Below are positions 1-21,271 of a stretch of DNA of 64,000 nucleotides, piece by piece. How positions within the stretch are numbered: the first letter of the stretch is position 1; every line of letters begins with the position of its first letter. The position numbers and the translations under genes are program-made. This stretch comes from Candidatus Omnitrophota bacterium (GTDB taxonomy: Bacteria; Omnitrophota; Gorgyraeia; Duberdicusellales; 4484-171): contig JAIPHA010000004.1 of the NCBI GenBank assembly GCA_021735445.1, forward strand, positions 1,508 through 65,507, in the 5' to 3' direction. The notes beneath the pieces are model-generated. The model was given only the letters and a program-made list of their open reading frames with translations. It was not told the origin of the DNA and searched no databases.

Positions 1-71
1 AAGCGAATTTTTTTTTCACTTACTCCTTTTTTGCTGCTTATGTATTGTATGAGTTTTTCTTTTATAGCCAT
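1..71 (-). CDS. partial ORF (first 23 codons, runs off the left edge); next gene downstream of the secretion ATPase
   Basis: ATG at 69-71 (complement), 30 nt after the ATPase stop; translates MAIKEKLIQYISSKKGVSEKKIR; too short to assign. Confidence 0.3.
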   Translation of the reverse strand, partial: MAIKEKLIQYISSKKGVSEKKIR

Positions 72-101: not shown

Positions 102-1832
102 TTATCTTTTTTTGTTTACCCTTTTTTCTTTAATCAATAGCTGATCCGTGCTGGTTACCTTGATGACTTCTTCTAAAGAAGTTATTCCCGCTTTTACTTT
201 AACCATCCCGTCTTCTCTTAATGTCCTCATCCCTTGACTACGGGATTCTTTTTTTATCACAGCTTCCGAAGAAGATTTATCTATCAAGCCCCTAATCGAA
301 GGGGTAACCCGGAGATATTCTGTTAAAGAAAGCCTGCCCTTGTAACCTGTATGCTGACAATGGCGGCAGCCTTTAGGCCGGTATAAATTCTTGTTATTGC
401 TGATTTTGTACTTTTTTATAATTTTATCTGAAAAAGGTATTTTTTGCTTGCATTTAGGACAAAGTTTTCTGACCAACCTCTGAGATATAACTCCGATAAG
501 AGTAGATGAAGTTAAAAAAGGTTCAACCCCCATATTAATTAGCCGGGTTACAGAACCAGCGCTGGTTGTTGTATGAAGGGTGGAAAGAACCAGGTGGCCG
601 GTTAAAGCTGATTTGATAGCCATATCAGCGGTTTCGGAATCCCTGATTTCTCCAATCATTATTACGTCCGGATCCTGGCGTAAAATCGAACGCAAGCACT
701 TGGCAAAGCTAAGGCCGATAGCAGGATTAATGCTTACCTGATTTATCCCCTTAAGCTGGTATTCTACCGGATCCTCTACAGTTACTATATTTTTTTCGGG
801 GGTATAGATATGGTTAATAATCGAATAAAGAGATGTGGTTTTGCCTGAGCCGGTGGGCCCGCAAGCCAATATCAAACCATGCGGTTTTAGGCTGTCTTCT
901 TTCAGTTGTTTTAAGACATCGTCTTCTATGCCTAATGAGTCTAAATTTAGGAGAGCAGTGGTTTTATCTAAAATTCTTATTGCGCATTTTTCCCCAGAGC
1001 TGGAAGGAAGAATCGATATTCTGAAATCTACATCTCTTCCGGCAACTTTTCTTCTGAACCTTCCTTCCTGGGGGAGGCGATGCTCGGCGATATTTAAATT
1101 ACACATAACCTTTATTCTCGAAATTACAAACGGATGCATTTTTTTAGAAAACCGGTCCGACTCCTGCAAGACCCCGTCTATGCGCAGCCTAATTCTGCCT
1201 TTATCTTCCAACGGCTCAATCAACAAATCAGAAGCTTTTTCTAAAACAGCTTTGGTTAAAACAGAGTTGGTAAATTTAATTACCGGCGCCTCTGTTACAG
1301 ATTCAGTCATTTTTTTCTCAGAAACTTCTTTTTTCTTGTTCTTGATTATTTTTAATTCATCAACGGTTTGTTTTTTGATTATAGATTCTAAGGATTCATT
1401 AGGCTCGGGTGAATAATGAACAGAAACTGCTTCTTTTATTTCAGAAAAAGGCGCAACTACCCGATTGATTTGACAACCGGTAATTTTTTTAATATCTTCT
1501 AAGGCTAAAAGATCCAAGGGATTAACCATAGCAACAGTTAAAGCGCTGCCTATCTTGCTTACCGGGATAAGGCAATTACGCCGGGCAATTTCTTTTGGCA
1601 CAATATTTAATATTTGTTTCGGAATTTTAAGATTTTTTATCTGGACCCGGGGAATGGAAAGGTATTTGGAAAAAATATCGACTAGTTTTTGTTCTTTAAT
1701 ATAGCCGAGTTTTATAATTAGCTCTATTAAGGGTGCTTCTTTTTTTTTTCGTAAAGCTAAAAGATTGTCCAAATTATCTTTAGTTAAATAACCTCTTTCT
1801 ACTAAATAATCTGTTATCTTTAATTTTGCCAT
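102..1832 (-). CDS. GspE/PilB/MshE-family secretion ATPase
   Basis: 576-aa ORF; T2SSE_N-type N-domain, Walker A GPTGSGKTT, tetracysteine CPKC...CRHC motif. Confidence 0.9.
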   Translation of the reverse strand: MAKLKITDYLVERGYLTKDNLDNLLALRKKKEAPLIELIIKLGYIKEQKLVDIFSKYLSIPRVQIKNLKIPKQILNIVPKEIARRNCLIPVSKIGSALTVAMVNPLDLLALEDIKKITGCQINRVVAPFSEIKEAVSVHYSPEPNESLESIIKKQTVDELKIIKNKKKEVSEKKMTESVTEAPVIKFTNSVLTKAVLEKASDLLIEPLEDKGRIRLRIDGVLQESDRFSKKMHPFVISRIKVMCNLNIAEHRLPQEGRFRRKVAGRDVDFRISILPSSSGEKCAIRILDKTTALLNLDSLGIEDDVLKQLKEDSLKPHGLILACGPTGSGKTTSLYSIINHIYTPEKNIVTVEDPVEYQLKGINQVSINPAIGLSFAKCLRSILRQDPDVIMIGEIRDSETADMAIKSALTGHLVLSTLHTTTSAGSVTRLINMGVEPFLTSSTLIGVISQRLVRKLCPKCKQKIPFSDKIIKKYKISNNKNLYRPKGCRHCQHTGYKGRLSLTEYLRVTPSIRGLIDKSSSEAVIKKESRSQGMRTLREDGMVKVKAGITSLEEVIKVTSTDQLLIKEKRVNKKR

Positions 1833-1860
1833 AATTTTATCCTTGCGGCGGTGCTATATT

Positions 1861-2364
1861 TTATTTACTTTTTTCGCTCTCTTTTTCTGTTTTTTCAGGC
1901 TGAAAAAGTCTCTTTATTACCTGCCTAATATCAGAAGGGGTGGCGACAAAAACCTGGATATCGCATCCGGTTGCATCCTCTAAATCTTCTATAGCCTGAG
2001 CATTCAAGGGATTAGCCATTGCAATAGTTAAAGAATTTTCTACCTTATCGATAGGGATAAGGCAATAATGGCTGCATACCCGCTTGGAGATTAACTTTGC
2101 CACCTCCTTTGATACTTCATAATTTTCTAAAGGCAGATAAGGATACCCGAATTGCAAAGAGAGGCAATGAGCGATATCTTCTTCCTTAGCAAAACCTAAT
2201 TCTACGATAATTTCTCCGATTAATCCACCCTGTTGATATTGGAGCTCAAGGGCTTTCTGGAGCTGGCTATTAACAATAATTCCGCGTTCTACTAAAATTT
2301 GGCCGAGAGGTTTTTCTCGTTTTTTCTTAGGCTTCATTGGTTTATTTAAAACTAGACTGGACAA
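1861..2364 (-). CDS. stand-alone MshEN / T2SSE_N domain protein (putative c-di-GMP receptor)
   Basis: 167 aa; two tandem 24-residue MshEN-like motifs (PLGQILVERGIIVNSQLQKALELQ, LIGEIIVELGFAKEEDIAHCLSLQ) followed by a T2SSE_N-like fold (LIPIDKVENSLTIAMANP). Confidence 0.7.
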   Translation of the reverse strand: MSSLVLNKPMKPKKKREKPLGQILVERGIIVNSQLQKALELQYQQGGLIGEIIVELGFAKEEDIAHCLSLQFGYPYLPLENYEVSKEVAKLISKRVCSHYCLIPIDKVENSLTIAMANPLNAQAIEDLEDATGCDIQVFVATPSDIRQVIKRLFQPEKTEKESEKSK

Positions 2365-3649
2365 AAGAGAGGATTTCTTCAGAAGTTACGCCATCTATCG
2401 GACTTTCGGCAACACAAAAATCAAATTCTATCTTATCACTACAGCCCTTTTTTAAGTCTTCTTTTAGAATATTAGAAAACTCTTGAGACTCTCTTTTATT
2501 TTTTTCTATTAAGATAACTGCCAGAGCATCCGAAGAAATTCTGCCTCCGACATCGATAGGCCTTATATCTGCTTTTAAAATTTTTGCGGTTTTTTTAATT
2601 GCTTTTTCTGCGTCGATATTCCCAAACTCTTTTTGGAGTTTTGAATAATTATTTATTTTTACCGCTACAAACCCGCAGGGCCTCTGGTAGGTCACCCCTC
2701 TTCTTATTTCTTCATTTAACCTTGTTTTGATCATTTTTAAATTATAAAGCCCTGTTAAATCATCAAACATCTCAAGCTCTTCTACTTTAGAAGATACTCT
2801 TTCATACTCCCAAATCAAAGTAACGTTTTGAGAAAAAAGGTTTAATACATCTATATCATCCTTTTGAAAAGTAAAATCGGGAGTGTTTACTCCTATCCCC
2901 ACTAATCCAATCGTTACCCCCTTAGAGACGACAGGGAAAAGGATAAGGTTTTTTAATTCCAAATCTTCGGCCCAGTTGCGATAGACCGGTGCTCTATTTT
3001 GATTGTCTACAACCACCATTTTTTTGACATTTTCAATAGTACCTTGCCTTTGGGCAAGAGTTTGTTCGATTTTTTTATAATCGATACCCAAGGCTGAAAT
3101 CACCCTTAAATTATCCGAATAGTGTGAATGCAAAACACAAAAAGCAACCCGCATAGTCAATAAGTTTTTAAGATGATAAGTAAGAAACTGCACCACTTCT
3201 TCTGCCGGAGTATCTTTAGAATAAAGATCATTTGCTTGTAAGATCGTAGAAAGGATAAGAACTTTTTTCGATACTTCCCGGTTTAACTGCTCTGTTTTAT
3301 GGCCGAACTCCCTAAGGTCTTCAAAACCGGTTTTGACTTTACTGGATAACAGGTTGATAATTTGCTCTAAGCCTTGGACTTCGTCGGGGATAGACGGAGC
3401 ATCTTCGCCGATAGTCTTTAAAGTTTTTTTTGATTGGTTATGGATTTTATGGATAGATTTTGAAATTTCTATGATAATCCACCAGCCTAATATTATCAAA
3501 AATATCAAAATCGCAGTGGCAGCTACAGAAACATAGTAACCGAAAAAGTAATGAAGAAGGACAACTGCAGGGATTAACGAAACCAGTGCTGCAGCAATCC
3601 AGATTCTGCGGCTTAAACTTAGATGTGTTATAGAAAAATTAACTTGCAT
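2342..3649 (-). CDS. membrane protein with sensor-like middle region and a degenerate GGDEF domain
   Basis: 435 aa; 2 N-terminal TM helices; DDLTGLYN start of GGDEF fold; SSDAL in place of GGDEF; RPID (RxxD) five residues upstream. Confidence 0.7.
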   Translation of the reverse strand: MQVNFSITHLSLSRRIWIAAALVSLIPAVVLLHYFFGYYVSVAATAILIFLIILGWWIIIEISKSIHKIHNQSKKTLKTIGEDAPSIPDEVQGLEQIINLLSSKVKTGFEDLREFGHKTEQLNREVSKKVLILSTILQANDLYSKDTPAEEVVQFLTYHLKNLLTMRVAFCVLHSHYSDNLRVISALGIDYKKIEQTLAQRQGTIENVKKMVVVDNQNRAPVYRNWAEDLELKNLILFPVVSKGVTIGLVGIGVNTPDFTFQKDDIDVLNLFSQNVTLIWEYERVSSKVEELEMFDDLTGLYNLKMIKTRLNEEIRRGVTYQRPCGFVAVKINNYSKLQKEFGNIDAEKAIKKTAKILKADIRPIDVGGRISSDALAVILIEKNKRESQEFSNILKEDLKKGCSDKIEFDFCVAESPIDGVTSEEILSFVQSSFK

Positions 3650-3720: not shown

Positions 3721-4623
3721 TTAATATATCCGCTGCCAAGCAACAATTTCTTTAGATGAATAACCCACATTGCTTAAGGCTTCACTTATAGCGCTCGGGT
3801 CGTAAGTAACGGCAACGTTGCCTTTTAACTCTGTGTCTATATTGGTTTCGCTCCCGGATAAAACAGCTCCGTTTATATCAACGGTACCGGTTATGGTAAG
3901 CCCTCCAATAACATAAATGATTCCATCAAAGTTTTCTGTTCCGGAAATATGGCAATCTCCATTTACAATCAGAATCCCCTCTCCTTGTAAATTGCCGGCT
4001 GTTTTTAACTGTTGATCCGATGAAACCTCTACCCAGGTTATCCCGTCAACCGGTTCTGCGAAATTGTCTTCAGTATAAAGATGGTCGGCATTGTTTTTTA
4101 TTTCGTCCTTGGTCGCGGTGAAAAGTCCTGAAAAATTTAATGCCGCATTTGGATTTTGAGTGCCGTTAATTTCGACACTTCCCTTTTCTATGATATCACC
4201 GTTGCTTTCGATAGCATGTTGAAAATTAGAAGCATCCGGATATTCGGTTTGCGCGGTCGCCGAAAGTTCGGTTGATAAACTTGCGCCGCCTGGTAAGATA
4301 ACTTCACCGGTAGCATCTATTTTATAATAGTTATGTTGGGGATCGGAATTCGGAATTAAACTAACCGTCGCCTGGTAAGAGCAGGCTGCTCCGGGAAGAC
4401 AACCTTCAGCTTGAGTTACAACCGTTGAGGAAACCGAATCAGGAAGATTAATAAACCCTTGCGAAAGAGCAGCTTCGGCTAACCAAAAAGATTTAACAGT
4501 GTTTACGTGCCTTTTAACAAGCTGCCTTTCGTTGATAACTTTAATAAAAAGCGAAGCGATAATAATCGATAAAACCGCAACAGCCCATAAAGCAACCGCT
4601 AAAGCAATCCCTTTTTTATTCAT
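3721..4623 (-). CDS. PilX/GspK-like minor pilin-associated protein
   Basis: 300 aa; N-terminal KKGIALAVALWAVAVLSIIIA hydrophobic segment; 8-nt ATGAATAA overlap with the upstream pseudopilin gene. Confidence 0.5.
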   Translation of the reverse strand: MNKKGIALAVALWAVAVLSIIIASLFIKVINERQLVKRHVNTVKSFWLAEAALSQGFINLPDSVSSTVVTQAEGCLPGAACSYQATVSLIPNSDPQHNYYKIDATGEVILPGGASLSTELSATAQTEYPDASNFQHAIESNGDIIEKGSVEINGTQNPNAALNFSGLFTATKDEIKNNADHLYTEDNFAEPVDGITWVEVSSDQQLKTAGNLQGEGILIVNGDCHISGTENFDGIIYVIGGLTITGTVDINGAVLSGSETNIDTELKGNVAVTYDPSAISEALSNVGYSSKEIVAWQRIY

Positions 4624-5191
4624 TTCTTACCTTCACCCTCTGGGTTAAAGAAGCGCCAATAACGCTTCCGCTGTTATTCTGCTCTTCTATCCGAACATTA
4701 ACTATAATAAGTTTTTGGTTGTTTAGATCGTCTTTATTAAGGCAAGTAATATTTTCTTGGGAATCCAAAGTATAAAAAACATTTTCGCCTACATTTCCAT
4801 ACTCAACAGTTGACAACACAGCTCCATCCGGGTCCACCTGAGAATAAAAAAGTTTGCCGGATTCCTGGTCATAAAAATATTCGCTATAATTGGCAGTTAA
4901 ATCATATGAATGTGACCCTTCGGATATATCAACCCCCTTAACCTTACGAAATTTAGCATGAAAGCAAGAAGGGTCATTGTTGGCTATATCGGCAAGATAC
5001 GCCCCTCTTAGGTCATTTGCTATTTTACTTATAACTATTCTGGATTTAGAGGTTATATCGGCCCGGCCTAAATTAAGAGGTGAAGACGACTCTCCAATGT
5101 TGAGGGTTAAAAAAATACCGCTTAAGGCGATGATTAATACCGCAAACGAAACTATAATTTCAATTAAAGTAAATGATTTTTTTCTATTCAT
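4616..5191 (-). CDS. pseudopilin (prepilin-type N-terminal methylation domain)
   Basis: MNRKKSFTLIEIIVSFAVL; start moved to the internal ATG at 5189-5191, which overlaps the upstream stop (ATGAATAG). Confidence 0.75.
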   Translation of the reverse strand: MNRKKSFTLIEIIVSFAVLIIALSGIFLTLNIGESSSPLNLGRADITSKSRIVISKIANDLRGAYLADIANNDPSCFHAKFRKVKGVDISEGSHSYDLTANYSEYFYDQESGKLFYSQVDPDGAVLSTVEYGNVGENVFYTLDSQENITCLNKDDLNNQKLIIVNVRIEEQNNSGSVIGASLTQRVKVRNE

Positions 5192-5549
5192 TTTTATGAA
5201 AAACCGTAAAAAGCGTAAAGCTGTTTTCCCGGCCTCTTTCATCCCAAGCCACGTCTACCAAAACTTCTTTTTTATTTGCCCCCGCTGTAACGTTAATCAT
5301 TATAGTTTCATTTTTTAAGTTATTAAACCCGGGATGGGCCTGAGTTGCTATTTGGTCGTAGGAGCCGGAAGCCAGTTCTTCTAAAACATGTTGAGCATTA
5401 TTTGCCGCTTTAGTTAAGTTACGATTTGATAAGCTTAAAAAAACACACGAGCTATAGGCGGTAAGCAGGCTGGTAGCTAAAAGGGCTAATATGGCAATAG
5501 CTACCATTAGTTCTATTAAGGTAAATGATTTGGCTGTTTTGAACTCCAT
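5184..5549 (-). CDS. pseudopilin (prepilin-type N-terminal methylation domain)
   Basis: MEFKTAKSFTLIELMVAIAILALLA; 121 aa. Confidence 0.8.
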   Translation of the reverse strand: MEFKTAKSFTLIELMVAIAILALLATSLLTAYSSCVFLSLSNRNLTKAANNAQHVLEELASGSYDQIATQAHPGFNNLKNETIMINVTAGANKKEVLVDVAWDERGRENSFTLFTVFHKNE

Positions 5550-5645: not shown

Positions 5646-6167
5646 CTAAGAATTTTTTACTATTTTGATTATCTTTTCGACAAAACCTTCCTCGGCATCA
5701 AGAAGGTTTTGGTGATGCTGAAGAAGCATTCGTTGGTGAATTGGGAATTTTTTTGGTAGTTTGAGATTATCAGCAAGCCACTCTTTTACCTTTTCAAGAA
5801 ACCTTTTCCTCAACCTGAGGCGGGATAAAACTTCTTTTTTATCCAGATAGGGTAAAAAATATAGAGGGATATCTATATCTATAAAAGGGCGCTTTTGGGA
5901 CATAAGAGTTTTTAAGGCAAGCCTTGAAAATTCTTTTTTCCCTTTCTGGGTTATCGAATAAACATAGCGAACCGGGCCTTCCTGGCTTTGAGTTTTTTCC
6001 TTAGTTATCAACCCCTTCTCTTCCATTATTTTAAGGGGATAATAAAATGACTTATTTTCCAGAGAGCTAAATATCCCTAACTTTTCTTTAGCAATTTTTT
6101 TTATTTCGTAACCATGGCGGGAGGATTCTTTAAGCAATCCTAAAATTATTATTTCTTGGATTTGCAT
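5646..6167 (-). CDS. PadR-family transcriptional regulator
   Basis: 173 aa; winged-helix pattern GLLKESSRHGYEIKK...YYPLKIMEEKGLI. Confidence 0.7.
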   Translation of the reverse strand: MQIQEIIILGLLKESSRHGYEIKKIAKEKLGIFSSLENKSFYYPLKIMEEKGLITKEKTQSQEGPVRYVYSITQKGKKEFSRLALKTLMSQKRPFIDIDIPLYFLPYLDKKEVLSRLRLRKRFLEKVKEWLADNLKLPKKFPIHQRMLLQHHQNLLDAEEGFVEKIIKIVKNS

Positions 6168-7989: not shown

Positions 7990-8001
7990 ATCTTACCCCC
8001 G

Positions 8002-8451
8002 TCATAGATAAAAAACTATTGCCATAATAACTCCGATCAAACCCCCGGCAAAAATTTCGACAGGGGTATGGCCTACCAATTCTTTCATTCTCTTTTCTTT
8101 CAACTTTTTCCCTTCCTGAAAATCCTCCATAATTTTATTTAATATTCTGGCCTGCACGCCGATTGAACGGCGCCAAGTTTGAGCGTCAAACATTGTAATC
8201 AGGGCAAAAATAGCCGAGAGAGCAAAAAAGGGTGACTGGAAACCTACCTCTTGCCCTAAGGCTACGGCTAAAGCGACAACCGCAGCGCTATGAGCAGAAG
8301 GCAACCCGCCAGTCCTTAAAATCCAATAGAAATTAAATTTTTTGCCCTGGGATAATCCAATGACAATTTTGATTCCCTGGGCGATAGCCCAACTTAATAA
8401 GGTTATCCACAAAACTTTATTAGCAAAAATTTGATTCCAAAAATTTTCCAT
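8002..8451 (-). CDS. divergent PAP2 / DUF212 family membrane protein
   Basis: 149 aa; GGLPSAHSAAV and GHTPVEIFAGG motifs. Confidence 0.7.
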   Translation of the reverse strand: MENFWNQIFANKVLWITLLSWAIAQGIKIVIGLSQGKKFNFYWILRTGGLPSAHSAAVVALAVALGQEVGFQSPFFALSAIFALITMFDAQTWRRSIGVQARILNKIMEDFQEGKKLKEKRMKELVGHTPVEIFAGGLIGVIMAIVFYL

Positions 8452-8901
8452 CTAAAATAAGTTATTTATCTCTTTTTGCCTTTCCCGCAATATTTTTATT
8501 TTTTTAGCCAGATTTAATTCTTTTTTCAGCAAATTAATTTCCCGCTTTAAAGCGTTAATTCCTCTTTTTAACTTCCCCGCCCTTTCTTTTGCTTCCACCA
8601 GAACCCGGGTTTCTTCCTGAGACCGGCCAAATCCAAAAAAACCGGTCCTGGCAGCTTCTTTAAGGCTTATTTTCGCTTTTCTGTATTCCTTTTTCCTTAT
8701 TATTAATTCTTGCCTTTTTTCTTCTAAAAGGTTTTCTATTTGTTTTGGGGCCTTTAATTGCGTGAGGCCTGGAGATGCTTGCGGATTATCTGCCTCCGTA
8801 GCTCCCTCTGAACCGGGCAGAGCAGTTTCAGCTAAAAGGCCAGCGGGCATAATTAGAATAGCCGATAAAAATAAAAACGTTATTAAAGATATTTGTCTCA
8901 T
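8452..8901 (-). CDS. hypothetical secreted coiled-coil protein
   Basis: Signal peptide-like N-terminus, Lys/Glu-rich heptad C-terminus; adjacent to the stop of the upstream gene. Confidence 0.5.
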   Translation of the reverse strand: MRQISLITFLFLSAILIMPAGLLAETALPGSEGATEADNPQASPGLTQLKAPKQIENLLEEKRQELIIRKKEYRKAKISLKEAARTGFFGFGRSQEETRVLVEAKERAGKLKRGINALKREINLLKKELNLAKKIKILRERQKEINNLF

Positions 8902-8971
8902 GATTTTAATTAAAAACTGGCTGTTATTATACTATAAATATGATTAAAACAAAGTGGTTTAAACAAAGGTA

Positions 8972-9045
8972 TGGCGGCGACAGGATTTGAACCTGTGACA
9001 TAACGGGTATGAGCCGTTTGCTCTGCCAGACTGAGCTACGCCGCC
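8972..9045 (-). tRNA. tRNA-Met(CAT), elongator-type (Ile2/lysidine not excluded)
   Basis: Cloverleaf GGCGGCG/CGCCGCC acceptor, anticodon loop CTCATAC, T-loop TTCAAAT. Confidence 0.85.
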
Positions 9046-9066
9046 GGAATTACCTGATTCTTAACT

Positions 9067-9933
9067 TTAAAAGGGAGTTTTGTTTAAAAGAGCTCCAATA
9101 ATTTTCGTATTTCTGTTTAAAATGTTCTTTACTTTTACCAATGAATTCAAATGATTTTTTTGCGCTGAAACGACTAAAATTATCCCATCACATTTATCTC
9201 CGATTAAGGAAGCATCCGCACAAGTTAAAGCCGGCGGCAAACTTATAACTATTTTTTTAAATTTTTTCTTTGCAGCCTCGATTAAATTATCAAGATTTTT
9301 TGTTTTAAGTAATTCTTGAGGATTAGGAAAAACTGGCCCTTGAGGCATGAAGAAAAAATGATCTAAATCAGTAGAAGATATCGCTTCGTCAAAAGAAGAC
9401 TCCTTTGAACAAAAATCACTTAGCCCTTTGTTGGATTTGGTGCCGAATACAGATAAAAACTGTTTGCGTAGGTTAGCATTAATTAATAAAGTATCTTCTT
9501 TCTCTTCTGCAAAAGCAATAGCCAAATTAGCTGCGCAAAAGCTTTTCCCTTCTTTAGGGAATGCGCTGGTAACCCCTAGAACAACCGGATTGTTGTTGTT
9601 GTTTAAAAAAGGAGTAGCCGATTTAATTTTTGTAAAAGCGGTTTTCAAGCCGGTTTCTTTTTTCCGTAACTCAAAAATGTTTTGGCAGCTTTCTTTTTTG
9701 ACATAGGGAATTTCTCCCAAAAAATCTATATTGAGGCTCGACTTAATAAGAGTGGCATCGGGAGAAACAATGTCTCGATATTTAAAAAAATAAATTAGAA
9801 TTATTCCAATAAAAAAAATAATGGCTGGAATAAAAAAAATGCTTTTAGAGAAAGAAGCCGGTTTTTGATAAATAAGAAAAAAAGCTACACTCAATAGCAG
9901 GATAAAAATAAGCCAAATAATCTTTTTTAGCAT
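9067..9933 (-). CDS. membrane-anchored BY-kinase/CpsD-like P-loop protein with degenerate Walker A' and B motifs
   Basis: 288 aa; 2 TM helices; Walker A SAFPKEGKS; LLINANLRK instead of DxDxR; VISLPP instead of DTPP; no C-terminal Tyr cluster. Confidence 0.6.
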   Translation of the reverse strand: MLKKIIWLIFILLLSVAFFLIYQKPASFSKSIFFIPAIIFFIGIILIYFFKYRDIVSPDATLIKSSLNIDFLGEIPYVKKESCQNIFELRKKETGLKTAFTKIKSATPFLNNNNNPVVLGVTSAFPKEGKSFCAANLAIAFAEEKEDTLLINANLRKQFLSVFGTKSNKGLSDFCSKESSFDEAISSTDLDHFFFMPQGPVFPNPQELLKTKNLDNLIEAAKKKFKKIVISLPPALTCADASLIGDKCDGIILVVSAQKNHLNSLVKVKNILNRNTKIIGALLNKTPF

Positions 9934-9981
9934 AATATTTAATAAGAGGTAGTTATACTCTGTTGTAATTTAAACAGAGTA

Positions 9982-10060
9982 TGGCGGGGCCGATGGGATT
10001 CGAACCCACGATCACCTGATCGACAGTCAGGGGACTTAAGCCATACTAATCGACGGCCCC
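9982..10060 (-). tRNA. tRNA-Asp(GTC) with encoded CCA
   Basis: Acceptor GGGGCCG/CGGCCCC, anticodon loop CTGTCGA, T-loop TTCGAAT, discriminator G then CCA. Confidence 0.8.
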
Positions 10061-10188
10061 GAATTTAGAATTTAGCTATTAGCCTATTATTTACCGCTAA
10101 TGGTAAACAGGGTATTAATTTTATATTATTACACAAAAAAGTCAATCATAACTTCTCAAAACTATAAACCCTCAGCAACTGGCCAAAA

Positions 10189-10263
10189 TGGGCGGTACAG
10201 GATTCGAACCTGTGACCCCTACCATGTCAAGGTAGTACTCTAACCAGCTGAGCTAACCGCCCA
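10189..10263 (-). tRNA. tRNA-Val(GAC)
   Basis: GGGCGGTTAGCTCAG..., anticodon loop TTGACAT, T-loop TTCGAAT. Confidence 0.88.
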
Positions 10264-10271
10264 AAAGAAAA

Positions 10272-10357
10272 TGCCGGGGGCGGGACTTGAACCCGCACGT
10301 CCCTTTCGGGACACCGGATTTTAAGTCCGAGTTGTCTGCCAATTCCAACACCCCGGC
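10272..10357 (-). tRNA. tRNA-Leu(TAA), class II with long variable arm
   Basis: GCCGGGGTGTTGGAATTGGCAGAC..., anticodon loop CTTAAAA, variable-arm hairpin GTCCC-GAAA-GGGAC. Confidence 0.88.
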
Positions 10358-10480
10358 GGTAAGTTTATCTTCAATCTTTTAGTTTATCAAACCAGCAATA
10401 GTTGTGTTTTATCTCCAAAGTCTTTGGGAAGAACTATGCACGCATAAACAAACCAGCTTGCCTTCGGCAAGAAGTTCTTG

Positions 10481-10501
10481 CCAACACCCCGGCGGTAAGT
10501 T
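10481..10501. repeat. 21-nt duplicate of the tRNA-Leu(TAA) 5' end plus its upstream flank
   Basis: ccaacaccccggcggtaagtt is identical at 10345-10365 and 10481-10501. Confidence 0.8.
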
Positions 10502-10579
10502 CCCTCTTTAATTTATCAGTTTAAAGCATAGCGCTAAGCGCTTTGCGCTATGCAAAAACTCTAAGTTAATAGCCAACTA

Positions 10580-10651
10580 AGGCGCGGACCGGATTCGAAC
10601 CGGTGAATAATGGTTTTGCAAACCACTGCCTTGCCCCTTGGCTACCGCGCC
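10580..10651 (-). tRNA. tRNA-Cys(GCA)
   Basis: GGCGCGG acceptor, anticodon loop TTGCAAA, discriminator U. Confidence 0.85.
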
Positions 10652-10666
10652 AATTATGTCAAAAAG

Positions 10667-10930
10667 CTACCCCTTTTCTTCTTTCTTTTCTTCTTTAGCC
10701 GATTTTGGCGGTTTCGCCTTTTTCTTTTTTTCTCCCCTGGGTTCGGCAATTCTTTTTTGAGCTATTTCTTCTAAAGCTATATCGAGTAATTTCTCGGTTC
10801 TTTTTGCGACCAAAGGCTTTTCCCCTCCTGCAAGGCTCATGGCCCGTTTTGCAGCTAACGCTGCTAATTTATAAATAGACCCGTTTGTTGCCCCTAATAA
10901 TCTTTCTCGCGGTATGTAATCTCCCGACAT
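10667..10930 (-). CDS. rpoZ: DNA-directed RNA polymerase omega subunit
   Basis: RERLLGATNGSIYKLAALAAKRA; start set at the second ATG, which is preceded by AAAGGAGG. Confidence 0.8.
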   Translation of the reverse strand: MSGDYIPRERLLGATNGSIYKLAALAAKRAMSLAGGEKPLVAKRTEKLLDIALEEIAQKRIAEPRGEKKKKAKPPKSAKEEKKEEKG

Positions 10931-10969
10931 CCTGCCTCCTTTAATCAGCAAATAATTTAGGTAATTTTG

Positions 10970-11539
10970 TTATTTATGATGTTTTACTATTATATCTTTT
11001 ACTTTTTTCGCTGTAGTATTGATATTTTTGTTTTGTACTAAATAATCATATTTTTTAGAAAATTGCAACTCTTTTTTTGCAAGACTGATTCTTTTTTCGA
11101 TTATGTCTTTGGCTTCTTCGCGTTTCTTCATTCGCGCATATAACTCCTGTTTTTTGGCAACGCTGATGAATATGCTGGTTACCCGGGTTTTATACCGGTT
11201 TTTTAAGGTCATTGCTCCTTTGACATCTATGCATAAAAGAAGGCTTTTATTTTTTAGCCGCGCAATTTTTAAATAAAGCTTAGGAGTGCCGTAATAATTG
11301 TTTAAAACTTTTTCGTTTTCTAAAAAAAACTTTCTTTTTTTTAGGTATAAAAATTCATCTTTGCTCACAAAAAAATAATCGGTGCCGTCCCGTTCCTGAG
11401 GCCTTTCTTCTCTGGTTGTAACGGTAACCGACCTTAGCAAAATATCGCGGATAACTTTTTTGCGAAAAAGATGCTTCACTAAAGTAGTCTTGCCTACTCC
11501 TCCCGGGCCGGATAAGATAAAAATTTTTGGTTTTTGCAT
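10970..11539 (-). CDS. gmk: guanylate kinase
   Basis: P-loop GPGGVGKTTL; 189 aa; canonical rpoZ-gmk neighbourhood. Confidence 0.88.
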   Translation of the reverse strand: MQKPKIFILSGPGGVGKTTLVKHLFRKKVIRDILLRSVTVTTREERPQERDGTDYFFVSKDEFLYLKKRKFFLENEKVLNNYYGTPKLYLKIARLKNKSLLLCIDVKGAMTLKNRYKTRVTSIFISVAKKQELYARMKKREEAKDIIEKRISLAKKELQFSKKYDYLVQNKNINTTAKKVKDIIVKHHK

Positions 11540-11563
11540 ATCGTATAGTTAGTTATTTGCCTG

Positions 11564-12352
11564 TCATTCAATATTTTGAGCCTGCTCCCTGATTCTGCCC
11601 AGATAATTTTTTGCCTCTACTATTAAACTGGCCATTTTTTTCTGCCTGGTTTTGCTTGATGCCGCGTTTAATTCACGAAGAATCTCCTGGCTTAAAAAAT
11701 TAATCGCTTTTCCCTTGCGTATTTGTTTTTTTGAATTGATTATTGTTTTCGCCTTTTTAGAATAAAACTCGACCAAAGATAATTCTTCTTCAATATCCTC
11801 TTTGCCGTCTACTTCTTTAGAGGGCCTTTTTTTTGCTTTTTTAATTTTGCTAATATTGTCATCTAATAGATTTAAATTTTTGGTTATTTCCTTGCTTATC
11901 GCCCGGCCTTTTTCTTTTTTGAATTCAACCAGTTTTTTTAAAGACTTTTTCAAAACAGAGACTAACTGTGTTTTCGAAACACCGCTTCTGCTATAGGACG
12001 CAATTACCCCCGGTAAATTCAATATTTCCAATGGTGATATTTTTTCTTCTAAATTAAAATCTTTAGCTAAAGATTTTAATTGGTTTACATAATTGGCAAA
12101 TTCTTTTTTATTTACAGAAAATTTATTCTGATTTCTAGATTCCTGATAAAAATAAACTTCTATTTTCCCCCTGGTTATATTTTTTTTGATTTCTTCCTGT
12201 ATTTGTTCTTCTAAAACAAGCGCTTGCTGGGGAAGATTGTAAACCGAAATATCAAGATGCTTATAATTTAAAGATCGTAAAACAATTTTAGTTTTGCCTG
12301 CCTTATTGCTTTCTTGGGCCGCAGAGTAAGCTGTCATTGACCTCATTGCCAA
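11564..12352 (-). CDS. yicC: YicC-family protein
   Basis: MTAYS N-terminus and C-terminal ...REQAQNIE typical of YicC; yicC-gmk-rpoZ synteny. Confidence 0.8.
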   Translation of the reverse strand: MAMRSMTAYSAAQESNKAGKTKIVLRSLNYKHLDISVYNLPQQALVLEEQIQEEIKKNITRGKIEVYFYQESRNQNKFSVNKKEFANYVNQLKSLAKDFNLEEKISPLEILNLPGVIASYSRSGVSKTQLVSVLKKSLKKLVEFKKEKGRAISKEITKNLNLLDDNISKIKKAKKRPSKEVDGKEDIEEELSLVEFYSKKAKTIINSKKQIRKGKAINFLSQEILRELNAASSKTRQKKMASLIVEAKNYLGRIREQAQNIE

Positions 12353-12849
12353 ACTCTCCTGGTTTGACTAGAAAATTGTTTTTCTAAAGCAGGGTAAAGA
12401 TCATAAACTATTTCGTCGGGATTAAACCACAACTTTATCTCTCTTTCGGCTTCGCTTGACTCGCTTGAAGCGTGAATAACATTTTCATAAAGGCCGGTAG
12501 TAAGTATCCTGCCGTAAGCGCCGCGAATAGATATTGGATCAGCTTCTTCCGGATTGGTAGCGCCGGCAATCCGCCGAACTTTTCCGATTGCATTTTCTCC
12601 ACAATAGACCAAAGACATAACTCGATTTTCTCCGTGTAATTTCCCTCTAATGTATTTGATTAACTCTTGAAAAAAAGGTTTATCTTTCAAGTGGCTATAG
12701 TGAGTATTGGCTAAATCTTCTTTAACCTCCACCACCTTAGCTCCGATTATCTTTAACTTCGCCTCGGAAAGACGAGTCAGGATATTTCCGGTTAAAGACT
12801 TTTTCAACCCATCCGGTTTAATAATAACTAATGTTGCTTCTTGATCCAT
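12343..12849 (-). CDS. ndk: nucleoside diphosphate kinase (long form)
   Basis: TLVIIKPDG, NVIHAS active-site region. Confidence 0.85.
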   Translation of the reverse strand: MDQEATLVIIKPDGLKKSLTGNILTRLSEAKLKIIGAKVVEVKEDLANTHYSHLKDKPFFQELIKYIRGKLHGENRVMSLVYCGENAIGKVRRIAGATNPEEADPISIRGAYGRILTTGLYENVIHASSESSEAEREIKLWFNPDEIVYDLYPALEKQFSSQTRRVWQ

Positions 12850-12876
12850 AAAGCCTCCTCTAAAACTTTTTATTTT

Positions 12877-13698
12877 TTAGCCAATCCGTTTTATAATCCT
12901 TTCGAAATCATTCAAGCTGTAATAATGCAGAATAATTTTCCCTCTTTTATTTTTTGAGCCGGCAATCTTTACCTTTGTCCCTAATTTTTTTTGCAGCTGT
13001 TCCTCGGCTTCTTCAATAAAGGGGTCGGCCTTTGTTTTTTTATTTTTCCGGAAAGCTTGTTTTTCCACATCTCTTACCGTAAGGCCTTTTTCTAAAATTT
13101 TATAAAATATTTTTTCCTGTTGAATTTTACTTTTAAAAGAAAGTATCGTCCTTGCCTGGCTCCGGTTAATAAGATTTTTTTTCAAAGCATCTTTAACCTT
13201 TTCGGGTAGCTTAAGCAAACGCATTGTATTTAAGACGGTTGTTTTATCTTTGCTGACAAATTGAGCAATTTCGTCTAAAGAAAAATTAAATTCATCTTTG
13301 AGGCGTTGAAGGGCTTGAGCCTCTTCAAGAGGATTAAGATTTTTCCGTTGTAAATTTTCAACTATCGCAGCGATAAAAGAATCTTTATTATCTAGATCCC
13401 TGACTATTGCAGGTATCTCCTTGATGCCCAGTAACTTAGCCGCCTCTAACCTTCTCCCGCCGGCTACAACTTCATATCTTCCCTCTTTAGTATCCCGAGC
13501 TAAAATCGGTTGAATGAAACCCTTTTCTTTAATCGAACGGGTTAATTCGGCTAAATCCTTCTGGTTCATCTCTTTACGCGGCTGAAATTTATTCGGATCA
13601 ACCCTTTCTAGGGGAAGATAGACAAACTGATCTCCACCAGAAATTTTCTTTTTGGGAATTAAGGCATCTAATCCTTTTCCTAACACTCTTTTACCCAT
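12877..13698 (-). CDS. parB: chromosome partitioning protein ParB
   Basis: 273 aa; ParB-box VVAGGRRLEAAKLLG; HTH region. Confidence 0.92.
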   Translation of the reverse strand: MGKRVLGKGLDALIPKKKISGGDQFVYLPLERVDPNKFQPRKEMNQKDLAELTRSIKEKGFIQPILARDTKEGRYEVVAGGRRLEAAKLLGIKEIPAIVRDLDNKDSFIAAIVENLQRKNLNPLEEAQALQRLKDEFNFSLDEIAQFVSKDKTTVLNTMRLLKLPEKVKDALKKNLINRSQARTILSFKSKIQQEKIFYKILEKGLTVRDVEKQAFRKNKKTKADPFIEEAEEQLQKKLGTKVKIAGSKNKRGKIILHYYSLNDFERIIKRIG

Positions 13699-14491
13699 GG
13701 TTTACCTCACTCTTTGCAAAGTCCTCTATTTTTCTAGCTTGACCGATAACCTCATTAGTTAAACTTAAATAAGCTTTTGAACCCACACAATTAGATTCAT
13801 AAAAATAAATTGGTTTACCAAAACTAGGCGCTTCGGCTAATTTCACATTTCTCGGAACTACGATGCCAAAAGCTTTATTTTGAAAATAGCTTCGCACCTC
13901 CTCTATTACTTGTAAGGTAAGGCGGGTTCTAAAATCCGCCATGGTTAATAAAACACCTTCTATTTCTAAGTGTTGATTTAATCTCTCTTTTATTAATTCA
14001 ACAGTATGGATTAGCTTTGAAACTCCTTCTAAAGCATAATACTCGCATTGGATTGGTATAATTAAGCTGTCAGCGGCGGATAATACATTTACTGTAAGCA
14101 AGCCTAATGAAGGCGGTGCGTCGATAACTATATATGAATAATCGCTTACTATCTTTTCAAGCCTTTTCCTTAAAAGAACTTCTCTGCCCTCCAATGAAAC
14201 GAATTCAACTTCTCCTCCCGTTAAAGAAATATCTGAAGGCATAATTGAAAGATTAGGCCAATTAGTAGCATAAATTGCTCCCTCAGCCGGAACATCCCCA
14301 GAGATGACATCGTAAACTGAATTTTTGTCTTCCGGAGCTAGGCCAACGCCGGAAGAAGCATTGCCTTGAGGATCCATATCGATAAGAAGAGTTTTTTTGC
14401 CCGCTAACCCTAAGAAAGAACTAAAATTAATGGCGGTAGTGGTTTTACCAGTTCCGCCTTTTTGATTACAAATACCGATTATTTTACCCAT
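13691..14491 (-). CDS. parA: chromosome partitioning ATPase ParA/Soj
   Basis: Deviant Walker A NQKGGTGKTTT; 8-nt overlap with parB. Confidence 0.93.
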   Translation of the reverse strand: MGKIIGICNQKGGTGKTTTAINFSSFLGLAGKKTLLIDMDPQGNASSGVGLAPEDKNSVYDVISGDVPAEGAIYATNWPNLSIMPSDISLTGGEVEFVSLEGREVLLRKRLEKIVSDYSYIVIDAPPSLGLLTVNVLSAADSLIIPIQCEYYALEGVSKLIHTVELIKERLNQHLEIEGVLLTMADFRTRLTLQVIEEVRSYFQNKAFGIVVPRNVKLAEAPSFGKPIYFYESNCVGSKAYLSLTNEVIGQARKIEDFAKSEVNHG

Positions 14492-14602
14492 ATTTTTCTA
14501 TTCTAATACTATCTCAGTTAAATTGCAACTGTTTTTATCCCTGCCTTACCTAAAAATTAACAGGCAAAATGAAAATCTTCAATAGAATCAAGGGGTTCTG
14601 GC

Positions 14603-15093
14603 GTTTTCACGTGGAAATGGCTCCACAACAAACATAAAAGAGCCATTTCCACGTGGACTTTTCCCGCTAACCATTTAAGACAAAACAACCTTAATGTCAT
14701 TCTGAGGCGAAGCCGAAGAATCTCAATGAGGCTTATTCGCCAGAGGCGGATGTAGCCGAATTGATCCTGAACGAAGTGAAAGATCTAAAACCATTGCAGA
14801 GATCCTTCGTCGCTCCCGCAGCTTTTGAGCCCGGAGATCCTCAGGATGACATCAGAGAAAGACTGCCTCGCTTTATTTGCTTCGCTCATTTCGCTCGCAA
14901 TGACAATAATAGAACATCTTTCCCGTCTTGGAAATAAAGATTGATACATTTTAATAGTCAAAATGAAAATCGTTAATAAAATCAGGGGGTTCTGGCGTTT
15001 TCACGTGCACTTTTCGCATTCACCAATCGAGCGGAAAAGTCCACGTGGAAACCATCTAGAAGCTAAAGAGGGAGATGGTTTTCACGTGAAAAC
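14603..15093. promoter_or_regulatory. cluster of five parS-like CACGTG-centred 16-mers
   Basis: Sites at 14603-14618, 14645-14660, 14997-15012, 15037-15052 and 15078-15093; the core resembles the parS consensus TGTTNCACGTGAAACA; directly upstream of parAB. Confidence 0.65.
15078..15093. promoter_or_regulatory. best parS-like site, a perfect 16-bp palindrome GTTTTCACGTGAAAAC
   Basis: The central 12 bp TTTCACGTGAAA are identical to the parS consensus core. Confidence 0.65.
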
Positions 15094-15141
15094 GCAGAAA
15101 GGCCTTGAAAAATAAGCGTCTTTGGGTTTTGGCTGTTTTTT

Positions 15142-16590
15142 TTAGGTGGTGCGGGCTTTTTTGAGCCGAACTTGGTAAAGAAGGGTAAGCAAATTCTGGA
15201 CAAACCAGTATAAAACTAATGCGGAGGGGAATTTATAAAAAATTATCCCAATAAAAACCCCCATAAATAATCCTATTTTTTTCTGCTGAGGATTAGAGGA
15301 TGAAGCGGTTATATGTTGCTGAATAAGGCCTAAGCCCATTACTAAAATAGGAAGAAGGTTAAAATACTCCACACCTACAACCGGAATAATAAAGGGAAGG
15401 CGAAAAAGCCTGTCCGGCATCGATAAATCTTTAATCCAGAGAAAAGAGGCCCCTTGGAGCCGGCTAAATCTAAAGACTACTTGGTAAAAAGCGATAATTA
15501 TGGGAAACTGGAACAAAAGAGGAAGACAGCCCCCCAAAGGGTTTACCTTATGTTTTTTATATAACTCTACAGTTTTTTTCTGCATTTTTTGAGGATTATC
15601 TTTATGTTTTTCCTTTAGCTCCTGCATTAAAGGCTGAATTTCCTGCATCTTCTTCATCGCCTTGGTGCTTTTTGAGGTAAAAGGGAAAAGAAGCGCGTAG
15701 GTAGAAAAGGAAAGAAAAATTATACTTAGTCCCCAGTTATGGAGAAAACTATAGAAAAAATATAGAACTTTTATGATTCCAACCGCGAGAAAATGCCAAA
15801 ATCCATAATAAACAATCTCTTCTAAGCCGTATTCTCCCATCTCTTGGGCCACCTGCGGGCCAAGGTAAAAAGATATTGTTGAGGGAGGATTATTCAAATA
15901 GAAATTAGCTCTTTTTTGTTTTTTTGTTAATTCAAGGTTATAGCTGCCTGGCAGCAAACTAATCGCATAATAACGGCTTCTTGCTCCGGCAAATCTTACT
16001 TCTGAATATTTTTCATTTTGAACCTTTTTAGGGTGCCTGCGTTCAATGGAATCACCTTTTTTATAAAAAGATTCAAAATAGCGTTTACTAATGTGGGATT
16101 TAGCTGAATCAAGAGGGAAAGAGAAAAATAAAATAGAGGAGTTGTCAATATTTTTCACCTCAACGGTATTTCCTTTAAAGACAAACTTTTTGGGGGGAGA
16201 ACCCTGGCTGAGAAAAGAAATAGTGTTTTGGTTAATATTAACCTTATAGTTTATATTTTGGGTAGAGGGCTGAAAACCCAAATCCTGAAAAGGCAGGGTA
16301 TTAGCAGGCGCATTGAGAGCAATTGAATGAATATAGCCCCCCTTAGCCGAATAGGTAATATAATAAGGCCCTATCGCTGTTTCTTCTAAGATATTTTCCG
16401 CTAAGGGCAAGCGGTTTTGAGTCCGCCCGGCTGGCTGCGGCCTGCTTGACTCTTGAATTGAATTGTTTGGACTATCAGCGCTAACTTCTTGATTATCAAT
16501 TGGTTGCACAGGTTGTTTTGGCGCAAACTGCGACCAAACCATAAAAAATCCAATTAGAAGAAGAAATGCAAAAAGTGTTCTTTTTTCCAT
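15142..16590 (-). CDS. yidC: membrane protein insertase YidC
   Basis: 482 aa; C-terminal Oxa1 core NPLGGCLPLLFQFPI. Confidence 0.92.
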   Translation of the reverse strand: MEKRTLFAFLLLIGFFMVWSQFAPKQPVQPIDNQEVSADSPNNSIQESSRPQPAGRTQNRLPLAENILEETAIGPYYITYSAKGGYIHSIALNAPANTLPFQDLGFQPSTQNINYKVNINQNTISFLSQGSPPKKFVFKGNTVEVKNIDNSSILFFSFPLDSAKSHISKRYFESFYKKGDSIERRHPKKVQNEKYSEVRFAGARSRYYAISLLPGSYNLELTKKQKRANFYLNNPPSTISFYLGPQVAQEMGEYGLEEIVYYGFWHFLAVGIIKVLYFFYSFLHNWGLSIIFLSFSTYALLFPFTSKSTKAMKKMQEIQPLMQELKEKHKDNPQKMQKKTVELYKKHKVNPLGGCLPLLFQFPIIIAFYQVVFRFSRLQGASFLWIKDLSMPDRLFRLPFIIPVVGVEYFNLLPILVMGLGLIQQHITASSSNPQQKKIGLFMGVFIGIIFYKFPSALVLYWFVQNLLTLLYQVRLKKARTT

Positions 16591-16592
16591 TA

Positions 16593-16799
16593 TTACCTTA
16601 CAGGGTCAAATCCACCTTGTGAAAAGGGGTTACAACGTAAAATTCGCAACAGACTTAACCATAGAGCTTTTGAGAAAGGGCGCTTTTTGAAAGCTTGTTT
16701 TGCATACTCCGAGCAAGTAGGAGTATAAATGCACGAACCAGGAACAAGCCTGAAAAAGTTTTGATATATTTTAATAAAAAAAAGGGCAACCCGGTTCAT
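16593..16799 (-). CDS. yidD: membrane protein insertion efficiency factor YidD
   Basis: 68 aa; CIYTPTCSEYAKQA...GGFDPV. Confidence 0.9.
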   Translation of the reverse strand: MNRVALFFIKIYQNFFRLVPGSCIYTPTCSEYAKQAFKKRPFSKALWLSLLRILRCNPFSQGGFDPVR

Positions 16800-16933
16800 A
16801 AAGAGATCTTGTGCCGCCCTTTTTTCCGGCGCTGATTTATAATCTTTTTGCCGTTTTTAGAGCTCATTCTTTTGCGAAAACCGTGTTTTCTCTTGCCTTT
16901 AAGTTTAGTGGGTGTTTTGAGATTTTTTTTCAT
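16796..16933 (-). CDS. rpmH: 50S ribosomal protein L34 (not in the ORF track, 45 aa)
   Basis: Translates MKKNLKTPTKLKGKRKHGFRKRMSSKNGKKIINQRRKKGRHKISL; its stop overlaps the yidD ATG (ATGA). Confidence 0.9.
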   Translation of the reverse strand: MKKNLKTPTKLKGKRKHGFRKRMSSKNGKKIINQRRKKGRHKISL

Positions 16934-16937
16934 GTCT

Positions 16938-17200
16938 TTGTAATTGGTTATCTATTTTTTTATCAAAAATCAGCTATGCTTATATAGCTCATCGCTGTTT
17001 GTGAGTCTAATACATTACATGGATGTGATAGATTCTCTTAGGTTTAAGCAAGAGAATTATCCGGCTGCGCCGGATATCACATACATATTTTGTAATTGAT
17101 TATCTATCTTTATTATCAAAAATAAACTGCGTTTATCTAGCTCATCGCTGTTTGTGAGCCTGATGCATTATCTTACCAGCCTAATACATTATTAGGTAAG
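16938..17200. repeat. intergenic structured repeat, family B (two tandem units plus a three-helix core)
   Basis: Units at 16938-17017 and 17090-17170 are about 80% identical; homologous in inverted orientation to 46208-46389. Confidence 0.75.
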
Positions 17201-17321
17201 TTGAAATTGTAGCATAAAATATTTGGGTGTCAACCAGAAAAAAGCTTAGGTAAATGCAAAACTGTTGTCAACAAAAATGTTACATTTGCCATTACAATCT
17301 TTTTACTCGTGTTGGGTACGT

Positions 17322-18579: not shown

Positions 18580-18643
18580 GAAACAATTGAGAATTAATTT
18601 GAGTAACATTTAATATGAGTCAATTCGGGGTAAGTAAAAAAAG

Positions 18644-18672
18644 TTGCAAAGATATTTTATTGAGGTATAATT
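18644..18672 (+). promoter_or_regulatory. putative dnaA promoter
   Basis: TTGCAA (18644-18649), 17 nt spacer, TATAAT (18667-18672). Confidence 0.45.
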
Positions 18673-18707
18673 TGTTACTCTTAAACACAATTAACCTTCC
18701 GCAAAAT

Positions 18708-18716
18708 GTGAATAAC
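18708..18716 (-). promoter_or_regulatory. DnaA box (TTATTCACA)
   Basis: Fits TTATNCACA on the complement; one-mismatch box TTAAACACA at 18682-18690. Confidence 0.5.
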
Positions 18717-18739
18717 TTGTTAACTTTGTGAAAACAAAC

Positions 18740-21268: not shown

Positions 21269-21271
21269 AAA

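Follow-up and report, generated by a model that had tools for sequence, protein, structure and literature searches.

A stretch of 64,000 nucleotides from Candidatus Omnitrophota (assembly GCA_021735445.1, contig JAIPHA010000004.1, positions 1,508 to 65,507), here called the window, carries on its minus strand a conserved operon of the type IV pilus or type II secretion-like kind. We think it probable, on balance, that cyclic di-GMP (c-di-GMP) input reaches the motor of this operon in trans, through a small stand-alone MshEN protein which we call m. The other proteins in question are G, a membrane-anchored protein with a GAF domain and a degenerate GGDEF domain, and the two PilB/GspE-type ATPases A1 and A2. 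The sequences argue strongly for m as a trans-acting MshEN sensor in this twin-ATPase system, and weakly for G as a c-di-GMP receptor. The open reading frames of A1, m and G were found where an earlier note on this DNA had placed them (102-1832, 1861-2364 and 2342-3649, respectively, all on the minus strand). To our knowledge, the MshEN domain has been studied almost entirely in cis, as the N-terminal domain of pilus and secretion ATPases.

The 167-residue open reading frame at 1861-2364 contains PLGQILVERGIIVNSQLQKALELQ, then YQQGG, then LIGEIIVELGFAKEEDIAHCLSLQ. Its product matches NF053729, the NCBIfam model 'c-di-GMP_motif' (cyclic di-GMP-binding domain, MshE-related), with 59.0 bits at residues 19-71 (cutoff 38 bits), and the Pfam family PF05157 (MshEN) with 77.2 bits at residues 72-159 (cutoff 23.1), which bears out the description of this frame in the earlier note as MshEN-only with two motifs around YQQGG. 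Over its whole length, the protein can be aligned with the MshEN/GSPII domains of Thermus PilF and of Geobacter and Myxococcus PilB (E-values down to 1e-40), and likewise with that of MshE; profile searches and an alignment to MshE were among the checks which that note had proposed. In the AlphaFold2 model of m (mean predicted local distance difference test score, pLDDT, 86), we observe a four-helix bundle and an alpha/beta T2SSE_N1 subdomain. The best fold match in the PDB is 5HTL, MshE with c-di-GMP, and the model also matches the c-di-GMP-bound GSPII-B domain of PilF; Foldseek gave template modelling (TM) scores of about 0.69-0.80 (target-normalised) and 0.62-0.78 (query-normalised) against 5HTL and PilF GSPII. 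A further match is 7LKO, the N-domain of Xanthomonas citri PilB in a PilZ docking structure. By these matches, m is a complete MshEN domain.

Both 24-residue segments of m, with the 5-residue spacer between them, satisfy the relaxed motif given by the discoverers of MshEN, [RKPN]hGxxhhxx[GAS]hhxxxxhxxxhxx[QNKRYWST] (PMC5013675), provided that Leu is permitted at position 1. Leu at this position has a precedent in L196 of PilF GSPII-B, which binds c-di-GMP at 6 nM, and Pro has one in P335 of PilF GSPII-C, whose affinity is about that of MshE/MshEN (PMC11731258). The fit to the published motif that the earlier note reported is thus real, but the leading residues that it listed as exceptions (Pro and Leu instead of Arg) fall within the relaxed or extended consensus. 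In a six-frame translation of the whole window, the two segments of m are the only matches to the relaxed motif, and 49 of the 52 motif-bearing open reading frames in 286,000 residues of related loci are m, which rules out a chance motif. All 52 orthologues of m share the predicted contact residues, which are G21, L24, and Q42 in motif I and G50, I64, and Q71 in motif II, and the MshEN_C/T2SSE_N1 part is also very highly conserved, with many invariant residues. Some orthologues (such as P0123, P0124, and P0130) are longer, 200-218 residues, and have a duplicated 53-residue MshEN_N module, with four motifs and one T2SSE_N1.

The conserved start of m is the ATG at 2337, which corresponds to Met10 of the open reading frame and is Met in 48 of the 52 orthologues. 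The resulting protein of 158 residues is identical to a database entry (P0121) that is recorded on 28 contigs. The conserved ATG and this entry rule out both the TTG start and the overlap between m and the upstream gene, which the earlier note had assumed; with the start at 2337, a gap of 4 nucleotides separates m from the gene of G.

The ATPases have the scaffold of the domain without its binding signature. A1 matches PF00437 (T2SSE) with E = 4.8e-131 and PF05157 at residues 59-144, and thus has a complete N-domain of its own. Nevertheless, its N-terminus scores 33.7 bits against NF053729, below the cutoff of 38, and carries T in the first motif and I in the second where Gly is required, at position 3. 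Among 50 orthologues of A1, the first of these positions is occupied by T, S, A, or L and the second by V, S, A, or I, never by Gly. In MshE, binding becomes undetectable in the G11L mutant and is 72-fold weaker in the G40I mutant (supplement of PMC5013675), so that substitutions of the type found in these ATPases are expected to abolish or weaken binding. The earlier note had described the equivalent stretches of A1 as degraded, naming T for G and R for Q; the degradation is confirmed, but R for Q is permitted by the relaxed motif, and it is the replacement of the glycines by T and I that disqualifies A1. The Walker A and Walker B motifs, the Asp box, the His box, and the Zn-binding tetracysteine CxxC...CxxC are intact in A1 and occur in 49-50 of the 50 orthologues, the catalytic boxes being canonical with TGH in the His box. 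In A2, whose N-terminus in the window, MAIKEKLIQYISSKKGVSEKKIR, agrees with the A2 consensus of the related loci, the His box reads TGE instead of TGH in 42 of 42 orthologues (SLTGE[LFM]I[FL]STLHT), and the Walker A motif is GPTGSGKS. This difference hints at two non-equivalent tandem motors, and A1 and A2 are probably not functionally equivalent.

The comparison covers 53 related loci, of which 50 come from a scan with a profile of G (one genome per species) and 3 from look-ups of exact proteins. All 50 scanned loci are of the Omnitrophota type, though some of the metagenome-assembled genomes carry other labels. Every related locus that is long enough to show it has the order G-m-A1-A2, even where G is only about 35% identical, and A2 comes after A1 in 42 loci; the three-gene arrangement does recur, as the earlier note had suggested checking. 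In these loci the gene between G and the first ATPase is MshEN-only and encodes about 145-150 residues. T2SSF is found downstream wherever examined, and pilin genes lie downstream as well; in a relative with 78% identity, the genes after A2 encode a PilC/GspF platform protein and two further pilins. The relaxed motif occurs in 49 of 52 m orthologues, 40 of them with the tandem, and in none of the 50 A1 and 42 A2 orthologues, which have no tandem either. Mean pairwise identity is 0.68 for m, 0.66 for A2, 0.64 for A1, and 0.47 for G, making m the most conserved of the four proteins. The short stand-alone MshEN homologues that were looked up by name all belong to Omnitrophota. This distribution agrees with the central proposal of the earlier note, that the c-di-GMP input lies off the ATPase; its companion claim, that G is a membrane receptor, is uncertain, the position of a secondary arginine being variable, as discussed below.

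In the same survey, this Omnitrophota-type module also turned up on contigs that bear the label 'uncultured Planctomycetia' (third-party annotation assemblies) and on one that bears the label 'Methanosarcinales archaeon' (L007, L010, L018, L034, L036-L038, L040, L041, L043, L047, and L050-L052). These contigs have probably been mislabelled or mis-binned.

The closest homologues of G are all from metagenome-assembled genomes of Candidatus Omnitrophota, at up to 97% identity. G matches PF00990 (GGDEF) with E = 1.4e-14 over profile positions 3-108 of 161, as well as GAF_2. Its AlphaFold2 model (pLDDT 82) includes a transmembrane hairpin (residues 12-62), a GAF domain (149-254), an S-helix (263-292), and a GGDEF fold (295-434), together with long helices, in the layout of dimeric sensor cyclases, and its fold matches are sensor-GGDEF cyclases. 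In an alignment of G to solved cyclases, the counterpart of GGEEF is SSDAL and that of RxxD is RPID, which is set five residues ahead of SSDAL (R363-P-I-D366, then VGGRI, then S372). K331 and N333 lie under DxD, Y335-S336 under FK, Q339-K340 under ND, G343-N344 under GH, and A347-E348 under GD. At the positions of PleD D327, K332, N335, and D344, G has K331, S336, Q339, and E348, respectively, and does not qualify as an active cyclase. The alignment reproduces what the earlier note had read by eye from the letters, namely SSDAL instead of GGDEF, loss of the catalytic positions and RPID five residues upstream, and the active site remains degenerate in it. The same holds for the family: among 42 full-length homologues, 33 different pentapeptides occur at the GGDEF position, GG[DE]EF occurs in none, and none has Asp at the metal-binding position of PleD D327. 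By its sequence, G is therefore catalytically dead. By contrast, the RxxD motif has its Asp in 42 of 42 and its Arg in 38 of 42 homologues.

A role of G as a GTP sensor through its remnant active site, a reading prompted by the conservative exchange of the guanine-binding residues N335 and D344 for Q339 and E348 and by the invariance of E348, was judged unlikely, as the metal-binding Asp is gone. A reading of the C-terminal sequence, made with no formal alignment, suggests that the phosphate-binding Lys/Arg region is absent as well. The G family also has invariant patches of its own, DxLTxxYN, YQRPCG, and IEKNKRQSQ, the last including R386. Both accessory proteins have invariant cysteines. In G this is C325, within YQRPCG, and in m these are C58 and C92 (158-residue numbering); such residues might belong to an interface or to a site that responds to redox state.

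Further links to c-di-GMP are found around relatives of m. In one related module (locus L055, positions 8001-14602), the gene order is MshEN-only, ATPase, ATPase, HD-GYP, T2SSF, and pilin, the MshEN-only protein being 46% identical to m. The HD-GYP protein, encoded between A2 and PilC, has a bona fide motif (HHERYDGKGYP); as it is present instead of G, the accessory c-di-GMP gene appears to be interchangeable. Away from ATPases, homologues of m occur after a PAS kinase and receiver pair and ahead of a gene that matches PilZ weakly. The closest non-orthologous relatives of m (P0283, P0287, P0306, and P0325) have MshEN domains 42-51% identical to it, and three of these four proteins fuse MshEN to PilZ. 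In three loci, canonical cyclases with all catalytic motifs, apparently active, are encoded no more than 10 kb from the module. Given these HD-GYP, PilZ, and cyclase neighbours and fusions, c-di-GMP signalling is present in the phylum and repeatedly tied to the module. One of the same four relatives fuses MshEN to a DnaA-type ATPase domain, which may be real or an artefact of gene calling.

In the mechanism that we propose, m would bind one c-di-GMP in its N-terminal four-helix bundle through the two intact 24-residue motifs, with an affinity that may be sub-micromolar; both ATPases retain the scaffold of the N-domain but lack the glycines needed for binding. Ligand-bound m would then act on the ATPases or on the membrane platform through its conserved T2SSE_N1 subdomain, and would thereby license filament assembly. 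G, a membrane protein that is probably a dimer, would contribute a signal sensed by its GAF domain, most likely as a second c-di-GMP receptor of the I-site (PelD/PopA) type, as a membrane scaffold, or as both. The sequences establish which genes and domains are present, the division of the motif between m and the ATPases, the dead active site of G, and the synteny; ligand binding, every contact between the proteins, and how regulation runs are what we infer.

Several observations weigh against this proposal or parts of it. The strict regular expression for the tandem fails in 12 of the 52 m orthologues, and 3 have no match at all. PilM/N/O and secretin genes are not found in the window, so that the machine may be of either the pilus or the secretion type, and c-di-GMP left ATP hydrolysis by PilB2 of Clostridium perfringens unchanged. 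The remaining points concern G. The module at L055 has no dead-GGDEF gene upstream, rodA being found there instead, so that G, absent from at least one related module, is not required for the core mechanism. The position aligned with the secondary I-site Arg (PleD R390; PelD R402/R395 class) is I394 in G and varies within the family; the only invariant Arg nearby is R386, two helical turns before it. As this secondary Arg is not conserved, the case for I-site binding is weakened and ligand binding by G is uncertain, and the RxxD could be kept for structural reasons. PelD, a proven receptor of similar architecture, is neither among the best 60 of the 92 matches of the G profile in the PDB nor among the top 50 Foldseek matches, so that a true homology of G to PelD finds no support in the matches listed.

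These points bear on the alternative that G is not a c-di-GMP receptor at all, its dead GGDEF domain serving the GAF sensor only as a scaffold for dimerisation or output, or binding another ligand or a partner through YQRPCG and IEKNKRQSQ. We give this reading somewhat less than an even chance. It accounts for the variable secondary position, for the invariant residues outside the I-site (Y321, R323, P324, C325, E382, and R386), for an HD-GYP protein standing in for G in a related module, and for the lack of specific similarity to PelD among the listed matches. Nevertheless, the RxxD retains an invariant Asp and its Arg in 90% of the homologues, down to about 35% identity, while the GGDEF pentapeptide is hypervariable; its exact five-residue spacing is kept, and PelD is a precedent of the same architecture. 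A more elaborate, three-tier relay particular to Omnitrophota, in which a dimer of G would sense a small ligand and, through the I-site, c-di-GMP, and would recruit or release m, which in turn would select the TGH or the TGE ATPase to power the filament machine, is a tentative idea that we regard as rather improbable. If true, it would be a new principle for switching pilus function in ultra-small, possibly host-dependent bacteria.

A different origin and role for m is conceivable. It might be the detached outer MshEN of a multi-MshEN ATPase, now a constitutive, stoichiometric subunit of the A1 (or A2) hexamer, with a logic as in PilF, in which a degenerate domain accompanies one that binds. 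The best-scoring relatives of m in a library of 1.8 billion proteins are (MshEN)4-T2SSE and (MshEN)2-T2SSE proteins, and (MshEN)n-T2SSE is among the published architectures. Only two of PilF's three GSPII domains bind c-di-GMP (PMC11731258). In addition, m lies directly upstream of A1, with a gap of 28 nucleotides or a short overlap. On the other hand, a fused m-A1 gene is found in none of the 50 species-level loci, some m orthologues duplicate only the MshEN_N part, and homologues of m occur in non-ATPase contexts and fused to PilZ, which suggests a free-standing module. We consider such a subunit role unlikely. As for origin, fission of a multi-MshEN ATPase is equally possible as the direction expressed by the earlier note, in which the input moved away from the ATPase.

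It is less likely still that m is a c-di-GMP-controlled competitor or decoy, whose T2SSE_N1 would take the platform site (of the GspL, PilM, or PilC type) and gate the choice of ATPase or block assembly. The very conserved MshEN_C/T2SSE_N1 of m shares its fold with the GspE N1 domain that binds GspL (partial matches to 2BH1 and 4PHT), and two paralogous ATPases with differing His boxes, TGH in A1 and TGE in A2, would need arbitration. Against this, no GspL- or PilM-like gene was found among the operon proteins, and sequence does not tell activation from inhibition. Finally, that m is a frameshifted or pseudogenised ATPase N-terminus or a chance open reading frame, as its position directly upstream of an ATPase with a homologous N-domain might suggest, is practically refuted by a separate m gene in more than 50 species-level genomes at 68% mean identity, above that of the ATPases, by the complete N-domain of A1 itself, and by the exact 158-residue entry on 28 contigs.

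The genes and motifs of the operon are listed in Table 1. On the minus strand, the order is the PadR gene, two pilin-like genes, the GspK-like gene, G, m, A1, and the start of A2. The PadR gene is at the same position in three related loci (L001, L002, and L003). Between this gene and the first pilin gene there are one terminator-like and one promoter-like site, both consensus matches only; in the counts for such sites, promoter-like ones are at chance level (18 against 17.2 expected) and terminator-like ones at about twice the shuffled mean (13 against 6.9, standard deviation 2.7).

Table 1 Features of the pilus-type operon, in window coordinates.
Feature	Position	Strand	Evidence and remarks
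A2, 5' end of second PilB/GspE-type ATPase	1..71	-	ATG 71-69; continues past window edge
A1, PilB/GspE-type ATPase, 576 residues, degenerate MshEN N-domain	102..1832	-	PF00437, PF05157
m, stand-alone MshEN protein, 158 residues	1861..2337	-	NF053729 and PF05157; mechanical TTG open reading frame reaches 2364
c-di-GMP motif II of m, LIGEIIVELGFAKEEDIAHCLSLQ	2152..2223	-	Relaxed motif, Leu at position 1
c-di-GMP motif I of m, PLGQILVERGIIVNSQLQKALELQ	2239..2310	-	Published relaxed motif
G, membrane-anchored coiled-coil / GAF / degenerate GGDEF protein, 435 residues	2342..3649	-	PF00990, GAF_2
I-site-like RPID (363-366), five residues, SSDAL (372-376) of G	2522..2563	-	Alignment to solved cyclases
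GspK/PilX-like minor pseudopilin candidate, 300 residues	3721..4623	-	Weak N-terminal match to NF037980 T2SS_GspK, E = 0.011; hydrophobic N-terminus
Pilin-like protein, prepilin N-methylation motif	4616..5242	-	PF07963 N_methyl, residues 18-44; true start probably near 5191
Pilin-like protein, 121 residues, prepilin N-methylation motif	5184..5549	-	PF07963, TIGR02532
PadR-family regulator, upstream of the pilin genes	5646..6167	-	PF03551

Elsewhere in the window, positions 12877-26365 are a chromosomal replication origin region, with parB, parA, and yidC on the minus strand and dnaA (18728-20074), dnaN, gyrB, and gyrA on the plus strand; the cumulative GC skew reverses at about 14-18 kb of the window. 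The position of dnaA places the pilus operon about 13-18 kb away from it. At 60087-63619 on the minus strand, a histidine kinase gene, one for a protein with a FIST domain, and one for a response regulator of the REC-GGDEF type form an apparent operon. The regulator has a GGDDF motif and keeps DxD, FK, ND, and GD but has no RxxD, and is the second non-canonical GGDEF protein of the window. An apparent V/A-type ATPase operon lies at 41414-48159 on the plus strand, including the A subunit (42508-44250), the B subunit (44247-45560), and an I-subunit-like protein (46390-48159).

Among known systems, the module resembles the MshE, PilB2, and PilF ATPases (MshE of Vibrio cholerae, 5HTL; GSPII-B and GSPII-C of Thermus PilF) in the domain itself, in the tandem 24-residue motifs with their 5-residue spacer, in the fold, and in occurring together with a T2SSE ATPase, a platform protein of the PilC type, and pilins. 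The difference is that MshEN acts in cis in those ATPases, whereas here the predicted binder is a separate protein of 158 residues and both ATPase N-domains are without the motif glycines. MshEN without an ATPase domain is known from PA3740 of Pseudomonas aeruginosa (MshEN-xT2SSE_N1), which is listed as an experimentally characterised c-di-GMP binder, and from cce_1044 of Cyanothece ((MshEN_N)2). However, the C-subdomain of PA3740 has diverged strongly, and the sources consulted mention no pilus ATPases encoded together with it, whereas m has a canonical T2SSE_N1 and its gene is locked between G and the two ATPases in every locus examined.

A description of the G/m/ATPase trio, or of trans-acting MshEN cofactors of PilB, was not found in the open-access papers searched, which included a 2024 review of PilB cofactors and papers on Omnitrophota and PilB; this agrees with the view of the earlier note that the three-gene arrangement was not a described one. 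What appears to be new is the conserved combination of a free MshEN carrying the binding signature, two ATPases without it, and a dead-GGDEF membrane protein, all parts of which have precedents. For a long time, MshEN and PilZ were the only c-di-GMP receptor domains recognised as widespread; ComFB has recently been proposed as a third. If our proposal is true, an entire phylum has a module in which binding of the ligand resides on a separate protein and has been lost from the ATPases, a natural 'split' system for asking what the MshEN signal does to a PilB-type motor. It would also give functions to hundreds of Omnitrophota proteins now annotated as 'hypothetical protein' or mis-named 'PilB' or 'diguanylate cyclase', and would mean that this uncultured phylum, about which little is understood, has pili under the control of c-di-GMP.

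In regulatory logic, the module resembles the FimX-PilZ-PilB relay of Xanthomonas and Pseudomonas, where c-di-GMP also reaches PilB in trans through accessory proteins, among them a receptor with a degenerate GGDEF domain. There, the MshEN-like N-domain of PilB is the docking site, that of X. citri PilB docking PilZ (7LKO). Nevertheless, it is a degenerate EAL domain that binds the ligand in FimX, with a PilZ protein that does not bind it as adaptor, whereas here the predicted binder is MshEN; profile searches found no EAL or PilZ domain in the operon proteins, and the likeness is one of function and logic only. PelD of P. aeruginosa and Bacillus cereus shares with G a membrane anchor, a GAF domain, and a dead GGDEF domain retaining RxxD, and it binds c-di-GMP through RxxD and a further Arg. 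G shows no specific relationship to PelD among the matches listed, the aligned secondary Arg is variable in G, and the outputs differ, Pel polysaccharide synthesis for PelD and a pilus or secretion motor for G. In Glov_1971 of Geobacter lovleyi (GAF-MshEN-T2SSE), a GAF sensor, MshEN, and a T2SSE ATPase likewise form one functional unit, but as a single polypeptide without GGDEF, whereas here they are distributed over three proteins and GAF is fused to a dead GGDEF. By this comparison, the Omnitrophota module would be analogous to both the FimX-PilZ-PilB relay and PelD, and a member of neither.

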